Origin: a virus
Taxonomy: Duplodnaviria > Caudoviricetes
Strand: one strand, 5' to 3'
DNA length: 64,000 bases
IMG/VR virus record: IMGVR_UViG_3300035208_002115
The first letter of the stretch is position 1. Each line of letters starts with the position of its first letter. Positions 6,515 to 9,094 of the stretch are shown here, in pieces. A model generated the notes under the pieces. It had not been told where the DNA came from. It worked only from the letters and a program-made list of their open reading frames with translations, and searched no databases. A program made the translations under genes and the position numbers.

Positions 6515-7027
6515 ATGACAGATTTGTCTTGTTTAAGTATTGAATACTGTAAAAGGTTTTATGTTAGTGTTTTACCGTCCAGCTTAAATCTAAATGTTTT
6601 CCCCTTTAAAAAATATATGCTTGCTTTCCTAAATAAGGAAAGTGATAGTCTTGAAACGTATGCCGAGTGTGTTGATGAAACAGATTTTTCATTGAATATT
6701 AAAGATATTGGTACTATAAAAAGGAATCAAATAAGAATAAACATATCTCAGAGTGAATTTGAGGTTATGTATGCGGTTTCAAAACCCAAAGTGATACATT
6801 ATACCCAATATACCTTAAATGACTCTAAAAACAATCTTATCTCGTTAATTAAGTATGAAAATCTTTATGAAGATATAATGGTCGTGGAATATCGTAGTGA
6901 TATGATATCAATTCAAAGTTATATACCTGACCCTTGGTTTAAAAATGATATAACCAATGATTATAGGTATAATCCAATTTTCTTATCAGTGAATAAGAAA
7001 ATTATTGGAGAAAAAATGATTAAATAA
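6515..7027 (+). CDS. CYTH-like protein (divergent)
   Basis: IE..KRF.V, IS..EFE.MY, VVEY, P.WF..DIT.D.RY.; canonical ExExK incomplete. Confidence 0.55.
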   Translation: MTDLSCLSIEYCKRFYVSVLPSSLNLNVFPFKKYMLAFLNKESDSLETYAECVDETDFSLNIKDIGTIKRNQIRINISQSEFEVMYAVSKPKVIHYTQYTLNDSKNNLISLIKYENLYEDIMVVEYRSDMISIQSYIPDPWFKNDITNDYRYNPIFLSVNKKIIGEKMIK

Positions 7028-7029
7028 AA

Positions 7030-7755
7030 ATGTTAATAGGTGTGAGTGGTAAAATTAGTGTGAAAACAGTATATATTTACACTCTCAGTGACCCTCGTAA
7101 TAATTTAGTTAGGTATGTGGGTAAGACAAATAATCCAAATATGAGATTAAAAAATCATATGAATCGTAAACACAATGAAAAAACACATAAAACAAATTGG
7201 ATAGAATTATTAAAAAGGGAAAAAATAAAACCATTATTTGAAATAATTGATGAAGTATCTGTTTTAGAATGGAAATTCTGGGAAAAATTTTGGATTCAAT
7301 TAATGAATAGTTGGGGTTTTGATTTAGTTAATCATACTTGTGGTGGTGATGGTTTAACATATGGTAATCAAACATCATTTAAAAAAGGTAATATACCTTG
7401 GAATTATGATAAAGCTAATGAATTTATCTGTGAAATGTGTGGAAAAAAATTTACTGCATCACCCAACACGAATAGAAAATTTTGTAGTCAAAAATGTACT
7501 TCAAAATATAAAAGTAATAAACCTAATTCAGGAACATTTAAAAAAGGTAATATACCTTGGAATAAAGGTTTAAATATTGATATTAGTAATAGAAGTAAAT
7601 GTGTAGCACAATATGATATTGATGGTAATTTTATTGATAAATATCAAAATTGTAGAGTTGCATCTGAAAAATATAATTGTGATTCTGAAACTATAAGAAA
7701 TTGTTGCAATAATAAAACAAAAACAGCAAAAGGTTATATATGGAAATATTATTAA
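7030..7755 (+). mobile_element. free-standing GIY-YIG homing endonuclease with NUMOD-type DNA-binding repeats
   Basis: YIYTL.DPR...RYVGKT..P..R...H, E..WI, N; FKKGNIPWN x2; C-terminal VAQYD..G...KTAKGYIWKY. First 10 aa copy the dNMP kinase N-terminus. Confidence 0.8.
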
Positions 7756-7815
7756 TAATTAAAATTTATATCATTTATAATATTTATTAAATATTAAAAA
7801 ATAAAATAAAATAAA

Positions 7816-8429
7816 ATGAATAAAACAATTAAAAAACGACCCTATCTAATCGGGATTTCTGGTAAGATAGGGTCGGGTTAAATGGAAAAGATGCATTTTC
7901 TGAAAGAATTATTCAGTATTACGAAAAACAAGGGATTAAATTTGAAAACAAAAAATTTGCATACGATTTAAAATATATCGTATCTTATTTAACTGGTATA
8001 TCTATGGAAGAAGCTATGTCCAGAGAAGGTAAACTAAAATTTTTACCTGAGTGGGGGATGACAGTTGGTGAAATGCAGCAAAAAATAGGCACTGAAGCTA
8101 TTAGAAATAATCTTCATCATGATGCGTGGGTTTTATCATTGTTTTCAAAGTATCACCCTGAAGTTGATAATTGGGTTGTTTCGGATGTTAGATTTAAAAA
8201 CGAGGCTGATTATATCAAAAAAATGGGTGGTTTATTAATCAGGTTGAATGGTGACCCAACATCTCTAAGAGAAAATGACCAGAGAGATATGAATCATGCA
8301 TCAGAAATTGAACTCGATAATTATGATGGATTTGATTTAATATTTGAAAATAAACCACCAATTGAAAATTTAGACCGAATTATAGATGAGGTTGTTTTAA
8401 ACATGAACCGTTTATATGTTGCTTTATGA
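7816..8429 (+). CDS. deoxynucleoside monophosphate kinase (T4 gp1-like) interrupted in the P-loop; recoded or pseudogene
   Basis: 7816-7881 MNKTIKKRPYLIGISGKIGSG*; frame from 7884 GKDAF...FAYDLK...QKIGTEAIR...W...VSDVRFKNEA..IK..GG..I...H.SE..LD. Confidence 0.8.
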
Positions 8430-9094
8430 TAAATATTGAAACTGAAAAAATGTTCCTGAAAAAACTTAGAAATTTACAGGAAGAATTTGATAATAGAATT
8501 CTGGATTTGAAGAAAGAATTTTATAATTCACAAAAAGTAGAAACAGAAGTTAATACAGTTTCACTTACGAATTTGATTGTAGAAAAATCATCGACTAATT
8601 TGAAAATTGATACACTTAAAAAAAATAAGAAATCAAATGATGAATTATTATTTAAAATAGTAGATGATGAATTATACAAAGAACAAAAAATGATGTTCAA
8701 TCGAGAAGAAGATTTTATGTCTTATAATCATATTATCGGATATTATACAGTTGAACGGGATTTTAGAGATTATTGGTTTAGAAAAATAATATTTGACCAT
8801 TTTAATAGATTAAAAGAATTTTTTGATAATAATGATTTATCTTTTCTCGATTATAAGTCTATACTTGGTGGTGTTGGTATAAAAATCATAAAAACTAAGT
8901 CAAAAAGAAAGGAATACGCATATAAATCTTTTTCTTTTGAAGAATTAGAAAGTAAACTACAATATTATTACAGCACAAATAATAAAAAATGGTTTAGAAG
9001 ATTTTGGAATCAAATATCTGAATACAATCCAGATAAGGTAATATTATTGAAAATAAAATATAAACCCATATTATCAGCTTTAAATATAGTATAA
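8426..9094 (+). CDS. hypothetical protein
   Basis: ORF track, ATGA overlap. Confidence 0.7.
   Translation: MINIETEKMFLKKLRNLQEEFDNRILDLKKEFYNSQKVETEVNTVSLTNLIVEKSSTNLKIDTLKKNKKSNDELLFKIVDDELYKEQKMMFNREEDFMSYNHIIGYYTVERDFRDYWFRKIIFDHFNRLKEFFDNNDLSFLDYKSILGGVGIKIIKTKSKRKEYAYKSFSFEELESKLQYYYSTNNKKWFRRFWNQISEYNPDKVILLKIKYKPILSALNIV

Follow-up and report, generated by a model that had tools for sequence, protein, structure and literature searches.

The dNMP kinase gene is interrupted within its P-loop codons

The window analysed here, a stretch of 64,000 nucleotides, is part of a single phage contig of 675,678 bp with a G+C content of 27.4%. An ATG at position 7816 opens a reading frame of 21 codons (MNKTIKKRPYLIGISGKIGSG), the last of which is a glycine codon, GGT (7876–7878). 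It is followed immediately by TAA (7879–7881), by two further nucleotides, AT (7882–7883), and by a second glycine codon, GGA (7884–7886), after which AAA GAT (7887–7892) continues a frame that stays open from 7884 until the TGA at 8427–8429 and encodes an otherwise intact dNMP kinase (Table 1). This downstream frame matches PF21448 with 31 bits (cut-off 27.1) and phrog_139 with an E value of 3.7e-31, and the nearest solved relative of the kinase, T4 gp1 (1DEK), aligns without a gap. Both hallmarks of a dNMP kinase of the T4 gp1 type (PF21448) are found, namely the family profile and a Walker A loop, GxxxxGK[D], directly after strand 1; the loop is complete only in the product of a hop from the first glycine codon to the second. 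The ATG inside TAAATGG additionally opens a 29-codon ORF in the upstream frame (7882–7971).

The original prediction, made from the window itself, had described this order of elements (Gly GGT, TAA, AT, Gly GGA and the resumed kinase frame) and had argued that joining Gly to Gly rebuilds GKIGSGKD. The letters and open reading frames confirm the description, and the profile of the intact homologues aligns to the joined product without insertion or deletion. Its further remark that the two glycine codons are not identical extends to the relatives described below, with take-off and landing codons differing in all 11 lineages. Using blastn, we found no similar DNA in public phage records, nor was the junction found in the prokaryote genome collection.

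Table 1 Features of the interrupted kinase locus (window coordinates) and gap variants among its relatives
Feature	Location	Strand	Basis or remark
GIY-YIG homing endonuclease ORF, 241 aa, with NUMOD1 DNA-binding module	7030..7755	+	PF01541, 38 bits; PF07453, 30 bits; both above cut-offs
Remnant of the original kinase 5' end (MLIGVSGKIS, ten codons), fused in frame to the endonuclease ORF	7030..7059	+	ORF translation, sister alleles
Replacement 5' kinase segment (MNKTIKKRPYLIGISGKIGSG) whose last codon is the take-off codon; putatively cassette-borne	7816..7878	+	ORF reading, identity comparison
Predicted RNA hairpin, 3' end abutting the take-off codon	7837..7875	+	Folding, covariation
Proposed take-off codon GGT, for the final Gly of GxxxxGK in the P-loop	7876..7878	+	GGT or GGC in all lineages, stop directly after
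Putatively untranslated gap TAAAT (stop TAA 7879–7881 plus AT)	7879..7883	+	TAA, TGA, TGAA or TAAAT there in relatives
Proposed landing codon GGA, which would be re-paired by peptidyl-tRNA-Gly and not decoded again	7884..7886	+	First GGN 3' of take-off in every variant
Resumed kinase coding sequence (KDAFSER... to TGA 8427–8429)	7887..8429	+	Profile matches, selection on frame
Type A gap, GGT TAA AT GGA	Window, L001–L006, L016, L022		
Type B gap, GGT TGA GGA	L007–L009		Several sequencing runs
Type C gap, GGT TAA AT GGC	L011/L012		
Type D gap, GGT TGA A GGC	L017/L038 and diverged L129		Two diverged genomes
Type F gap, GGT TAA AT GGA AAG	L035		
Type G gap, GGT TAA GGC	L036		
Type H gap, GGT TAA AT GGA			At least eight ENA samples
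Type J gap, GGC TAA GGA	L143		More distant kinase; adjoins an endonuclease 45% identical to the window's

The break recurs in diverged phages with gaps of three lengths

A protein search with the downstream part of the kinase returned full-length intact kinases together with a set of shortened gene calls, and the DNA behind the shortened calls shows the break every time. The same break is found in at least ten diverged phage lineages from many samples, where the original prediction had pointed to relatives as the place to look for the insert. The identical junction (GGGTCGGGTTAAATGGAAAAGA) recurs in two more contigs of giant phages, 640 kb and 422 kb long, as well as in short ones that come from two additional samples, which excludes an assembly error of this record, a possibility that had been left open; the 640-kb relative, which carries an A-type gap, is a complete phage.

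The variants differ in detail while keeping one plan (Table 1). The take-off codon is GGT in ten lineages and GGC in L143, a stop (TAA or TGA) lies immediately 3' of it in each variant, and in 11 of 11 lineages the landing codon is the nearest GGN downstream of take-off. Gaps of 3, 4 and 5 nt occupy the same site with the downstream frame intact, so that all three frame relations between the two coding blocks are represented. Types A, B, C, D and H were reached via protein similarity with no DNA pattern used, and their Gly-stop-Gly form is therefore no artefact of the search. Of 80 kinase loci from IMG/VR, the broken ones are of the A and D types only.

In two B-type contigs (L007:870-1478 and L008:119-727) the TGA of the gap was called as Trp under code 4, giving a 202-aa 'GSGWGKD' protein (P0048); this is a gene-caller artefact, because the neighbouring gene of the same phage ends in TGA. 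The gap allele of L035 (L035:1-771, minus strand) has a kinase frame of 257 codons that meets no stop before the contig ends; it has lost its terminal stop, or else it is joined to the neighbouring gene.

A similar arrangement was seen once outside these lineages, in a guanylate-kinase-family gene (PF00625) of an unrelated phage (L024:3323-3871, on the same contig as L134; IMGVR_UViG_3300032280_000786, 90 kb). It reads MFKTEKVIIIGPSGSG, then TAA, then GKDYLMRKL, with GGG TCG GGT TAA GGA AAA GAT at the same P-loop position. The gap is preceded by a GGCCC-UUCG-GGGUC hairpin, no endonuclease lies nearby, and the relatives (P0108–P0112 and L135) have GSGKD intact; the case is known from this single contig.

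The gap forms the right edge of a GIY-YIG endonuclease cassette

The ORF upstream of the kinase has the features of a free-standing GIY-YIG element, that is, a catalytic domain, a DNA-binding module, and presence or absence at a conserved target between near-identical genomes. In the intact sister allele (P0002, 86% identical) the kinase start, MLIAVSGKIGSGKD, lies directly after the same 170-aa ORF. Intermediate states are found among the relatives: L004 has kept the MLIGVSGKIS remnant and deleted the endonuclease, and L001 has lost both. Endonuclease homologues of 75% identity stand upstream of the gapped kinases in L011/L012 (type C) and in L122/L123; a full endonuclease lies upstream of the kinase in C and H, and a 60-aa remnant in D (L017/L038). 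In the distant L143 (L143:1300-1500) the old kinase start of 14 codons, MKNIIGISGKIGSG, with a TGA after it, persists ahead of the endonuclease. This relic is cut exactly after the last P-loop Gly, and both copies of the 5' end stop there. Neither the endonuclease nor the junction has a second copy elsewhere in the window's own genome.

Comparison of a cassette-bearing contig (L011) with an intact one (L131) delimits the element: the flanks are 97.9% and 98.8% identical, and homology returns exactly at the landing codon. The polymorphic block between them (L011:1581-2030 versus L131:1301-1537) includes a further exchange, of an unrelated ORF that lies upstream of the endonuclease and has 149 aa in one contig and 78 aa in the other, neither with a Pfam match. 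In the kinase tree, gap alleles occur at no fewer than six separate places, each beside intact alleles, and the protein sequence of the type C kinase does not differ from that of the intact P0030. Between the A-type cassette block and that of all the other TAAAT, TGA and TGAA lineages identity is 76–87%, and with that of G, whose 63-nt block begins upstream of its ATG, it is 71–73%, versus only 64–67% for the kinase bodies of A against B, C and H. A co-conversion gradient, a sign of very recent homing, was not seen, and identity drops abruptly after the gap.

Taken from sequence comparison, these observations point to a homing cassette made up of the endonuclease, a replacement kinase 5' end and the gap and inserted where the Gly and Lys codons of the P-loop meet, and the cassette is, judged in the same way, mobile. 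They also uphold the link to the adjacent endonuclease that had been drawn initially, in that the GIY-YIG cassette ends on its right with the gap. As suggested by the example of MobA (bioRxiv 10.1101/2022.08.31.505936), the gap probably protects the invaded allele from cleavage by the endonuclease. A group I intron or an intein was considered and rejected: in the interval 6900–8500 no intron core was found and no Rfam match came up to its threshold, the endonuclease has an ORF of its own, and the kinase 5' end is present twice.

The kinase frame is under purifying selection from the landing site onwards

In the kinase body, dN/dS is 0.07–0.09 among A-type genomes (dS 0.6–1.1), 0.096 between the two genomes with the rare TGAA gap and 0.09 between F and H; across the groups sharing a gap type it is 0.07–0.10, with dS of 0.45–1.1. 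The first 40 codons past the landing site contain no ATG, GTG or TTG, the first in-frame ATG being at 8004. Their pN/pS is 0.13–0.16, with 10–16 synonymous changes among three A-type genomes and 6.5–9 in the D and F/H pairs, and this constraint on a stretch with no start codon of its own argues that it is translated in the kinase frame. The roughly 180–260 downstream codons are free of frameshifts and internal stops in all 11 gap lineages, the one exception to an intact gene being L035 with its missing terminal stop.

Purifying selection downstream, which the original prediction had named as a check, is thus present both in the kinase body and in the 40 codons next to the gap. Together with the recurrence of the break and the intact frames, the low dN/dS excludes the simple pseudogene that had been left open. 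Two modes of re-initiation were likewise rejected. An internal start at Met 8004 does not account for selection on the 40 codons that precede it, and a restart at the ATG within TAAATG would be in the wrong frame; the 29-aa ORF that it opens is unlike that of the C-type relative, and the ATG is missing in the 3-nt and 4-nt variants.

A covarying hairpin ends exactly at the take-off codon

The replacement segment is predicted to fold into a hairpin with a lower stem of 11 bp (7837–7847 with 7865–7875) and an upper stem of 5–6 bp (7849–7854 with 7858–7863), a total of 17 bp ending exactly at the take-off codon (position −1). The 90 nt from 7816 to 7905, which include the hairpin and a weak downstream helix, fold with −28 kcal/mol (z −5.3 versus shuffles). 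Across the 11 lineages 96.8% of cells are paired, compared with 34–56% in slid controls; compensatory changes occur at four hairpin pairs, and the covariation score was reached by none of 500 shuffles. Some of the compensatory changes alter amino acids (Y, N, P or H with I or V; RP..GS versus SP..GA). The 45 nt before take-off fold with −23 to −30 kcal/mol in ten gap alleles and with −27.0 kcal/mol in L143, whereas the same region of seven intact alleles, in which the hairpin is missing, gives −0.5 to −3.6 kcal/mol.

Shared descent with the cassette could partly account for the confinement of the hairpin to gap alleles. Within the A group the 60-nt cassette block is 95–98% identical, as against 75–88% for the kinase body and 60–72% for the upstream spacer: the block with the hairpin is the best conserved part of the locus, and identity falls abruptly right at the gap. 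One intact allele with an N-terminal extension (L041:2438-2510) carries the 5' arm of the hairpin only (CGACCCCACCT), with ordinary P-loop codons and no gap; its sequence suggests that recombination with an intact allele has healed a cassette. The N-extended intact alleles of L119 and L120 are similar to it. No Rfam family scored above threshold in 6900–8500, and a terminator scan gave nothing relevant.

Judging by what is generally known of the path of mRNA through the ribosome, with GGU in the P site the 3' arm of the hairpin should occupy the exit path and the upper stem should just have emerged. We infer from this geometry that the hairpin may drive the hop proposed below.

A short Gly-to-Gly bypass would restore the kinase

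We propose that a short translational bypass, a stop-hop from one glycine codon to the next, yields the kinase as a single polypeptide, and on the strength of the comparisons above we put the probability of this reading at roughly two in three. The ribosome would translate the 21-codon replacement segment until peptidyl-tRNA-Gly occupies GGU (7876–7878) in the P site, with UAA in the A site. The anticodon of the tRNA-Gly would then unpair, the mRNA would slip by 8 nt, and re-pairing would take place at GGA (7884–7886). Decoding would restart at AAA and create the canonical P-loop GKIGSGKD, in a product that reads ...GKIGSGKDAFSE. The mRNA could be drawn along by the necessary 6–8 nt as the lower stem zips up.

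The locus displays what is expected of a bypass: two selected coding blocks, Gly codons on both sides, a stop in the A site and a frame set by the landing site. A hop to the first GGN would produce GSGKD in every variant (GAGKD in J), and the same ungapped P-loop is present in 54 of 54 intact homologues. Aligned to the profile of these homologues, the hop product has no indel and scores 319.8 bits, compared with 312–314 bits for the alternatives, which carry one to three inserted residues; this comparison and that with 1DEK settle the spacing of the loop. Gaps of 3, 4 and 5 nt lie behind one and the same signal, and only a Gly-to-Gly hop of 6–8 nt rescues every variant. The minimal Gly-stop-Gly bypass first suggested for the window alone thus gains support from the comparative data, in which three gap lengths share one rescue; the hop as such is what we infer from them.

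Several considerations count against the hop. A single tRNA-Gly(GCC) reads GGU and GGC as cognate codons, whereas movement from GGU to GGA needs wobble tolerance: in the window, re-pairing by a tRNA-Gly with the GCC anticodon would carry a wobble mismatch. An unusual tRNA-Gly was rejected, both phage tRNA-Gly genes having normal 7-nt anticodon loops. According to the literature, uninduced stop-hops in E. coli are low-level events, and an ochre suppressor tRNA, for which a candidate is described below, would compete at UAA. Recent spread of the cassette could moreover explain part of the apparent long-term selection, a possibility raised by the stronger conservation of the 60-nt cassette block relative to the kinase body.

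More broadly, a family of GIY-YIG cassettes may invade the P-loop codons of phage dNMP kinases, each carrying a new kinase 5' end with a hairpin right against the Gly take-off codon that would drive a hop of 6–8 nt past a stop to the next Gly codon. Such a family would amount to a natural, efficient stop-hop and to an independent second origin of the strategy of gene 60; we regard this extended reading as slightly favoured over its negation.

Alternative explanations

The bypass has to be weighed against conventional recoding, in which each gap type would be rescued by its own mechanism and the kinase would tolerate two or three extra P-loop residues. The 5-nt gaps would then be crossed by a tRNA-Gly slipping −1 from GGU to the GGG that overlaps it, with GSGLNGKD (...GSGLNGKDAFSE) as the product, the 3-nt gaps by readthrough or suppression of the stop, and the 4-nt gap by a +1 shift. 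UCG GGU is indeed conserved, so that a GGG overlaps the take-off codon, and the −1 product retains a formal GxxxxGKD. The scheme nevertheless demands three mechanisms in close relatives that share one conserved signal, and it predicts a loop insertion that occurs in none of the 54 intact homologues. The site has no X XXY YYZ heptamer, its sole strong structure lies 5', and no 3' stimulator is supported, a weak A-U-rich helix being predicted there and broken at one pair in 3 of 8 sequences; a +1 slip from GGU to GUU would pair poorly. The −1 frameshift to GSGLNGKD, which had been offered at the outset as the other option, is accordingly disfavoured as a general mechanism, the 3-nt and 4-nt gaps of relatives being beyond −1 rescue. 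Suppression could draw on a tRNA encoded by the window's own genome: outside the window (G000:C1:37754-37827, minus strand) lies a well-formed 74-nt tRNA gene with the anticodon UUA, which could read UAA, and a normal 7-nt anticodon loop; its G+C content is 50%, against 27% for the genome, in which TAA is the stop of most genes. As a rescuer it was rejected, for suppression in the window continues in the wrong frame, and a search of the complete 640-kb relative by DNA similarity, with four candidate stretches scanned for tRNAs, brought up no clear counterpart. An alternative genetic code was rejected as well: standard-code ORFs span 85% of the genome, TAA and TGA end normal genes, and in a TGA-gap genome the TGA of an ATGA overlap ends a normal gene. 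Taken together, we consider separate recoding of each gap type quite unlikely.

It is also conceivable, if improbable, that the full-length kinase is not made at all, either because each lineage has suffered a recent knock-out or because a C-terminal product devoid of the P-loop is what matters; conservation would then reflect recent invasion or another function. Gene callers do begin at an internal Met (P0004, P0005, P0063 and P0073), homing elements can be mildly harmful, and recent spread would fit with the far stronger conservation of the cassette block relative to its flanks. This explanation is, however, hard to square with a pN/pS of 0.13–0.16 in the codons before the first ATG, with the freedom of the 11 gap lineages from downstream frameshifts and internal stops, with the preservation of P-loop residues in the replacement 5' segment, or with the several lineages in which the endonuclease has decayed or been deleted and the kinase frame is still intact. 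Removal of the gap at the level of the nucleic acid, as a tiny intron, by RNA editing or by transcriptional slippage, or its dismissal as a sequencing artefact, seems very improbable. The strong hairpin beside the gap could in principle serve as a processing signal; yet there is no Rfam family at threshold and no intron core, the site has no homopolymer run on which a polymerase could slip, and independent assemblies from many samples have the same sequence. To our knowledge, no splicing system handles inserts of 3–5 nt. We therefore retain the Gly-to-Gly hop as the preferred reading.

Comparison with known systems

Efficient bypassing in phages has been firmly established for the T4 gene 60 cassette family only, with the phiHau3 terminase as a partly supported short case, and shorter counterparts of gene 60 have long been expected by specialists. 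The locus described here would offer a compact natural system of about 75 nt with built-in variation: GGU or GGC at take-off, GGA or GGC at landing, several gap lengths, and hairpins with compensatory changes, by which the idea that exiting mRNA acts as a driver becomes testable. It also illustrates a route by which a homing endonuclease may enter the most conserved motif of an enzyme with neither an intron nor an intein, and it cautions that gene callers shorten the gapped kinase genes or miscall them by reading TGA as Trp. Full-text literature searches found no report of bypassing in a dNMP kinase.

If true, the proposal would supply a natural stop-hop, including the in-frame form in which nine nucleotides specify one residue. 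Synthetic stop-hops of this form were described in E. coli (Weiss et al. 1987, reviewed in PMC5009743), and a review of 2016 stated that a natural in-frame stop-hop was not known (PMC5009743). The 3-nt variants GGU UGA GGA, GGU UAA GGC and GGC UAA GGA have exactly the synthetic form. The synthetic cases were low-level, artificial and devoid of stimulators; those reported here are natural, conserved and mobile and come with a covarying hairpin.

The nearest natural short case is the terminase of Streptomyces phage phiHau3, which has a 10-nt insert led by UUA (7 nt in a prophage) that is found in only 3 of 100 terminase genes (PMC10732093). As in the kinase, a short gap follows Gly in an essential phage gene (GWG|KDPLL) and begins with a codon that is slow to decode. 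There, however, the trigger is a rare sense codon, UUA, thought to be regulatory, the gap is longer, and no homing endonuclease has been reported. A different solution is seen in nrdA of phage Aeh1, where the endonuclease MobE lies inside a conserved enzyme gene whose function is kept without splicing (bioRxiv 10.1101/2022.08.31.505936). In that gene two polypeptides reassemble, whereas the kinase has a second copy of its 5' end and most likely depends on the ribosome to join the two parts of its product.

The closest parallel remains T4 gene 60, with its 50-nt bypass on a MobA element (Manning and Atkins, bioRxiv 10.1101/2022.08.31.505936; Wills et al., bioRxiv 10.1101/2024.12.09.627546). Both loci combine a Gly take-off codon, an adjacent stop and a Gly landing codon, encode one protein in two blocks, and have the gap within a mobile cassette with an endonuclease and replacement coding sequence; at either locus the gap outlives the endonuclease. 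The two systems share no homology: the target is the large-subunit gene of a topoisomerase in T4 and the P-loop of a dNMP kinase here, and the endonucleases are MobA and a GIY-YIG enzyme, respectively. The gap is 50 nt long in gene 60 and 3–5 nt long here, where, unlike in gene 60, its length varies through all three frames among relatives. The take-off stem-loop of gene 60 contains GGA-UAG, whereas the 17-bp hairpin of the kinase ends at −1 and leaves the take-off codon and the stop outside. Gene 60 further has a long nascent-peptide signal, for which a chain of 21 residues leaves no room. For gene 60, pairing of mRNA as it leaves the ribosome has been put forward as what drives the forward movement (bioRxiv 10.1101/2024.12.09.627546), and the zipping of the hairpin that we envisage would agree with that proposal. 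As we read it, the kinase locus works like gene 60, yet stands outside that homologous family.
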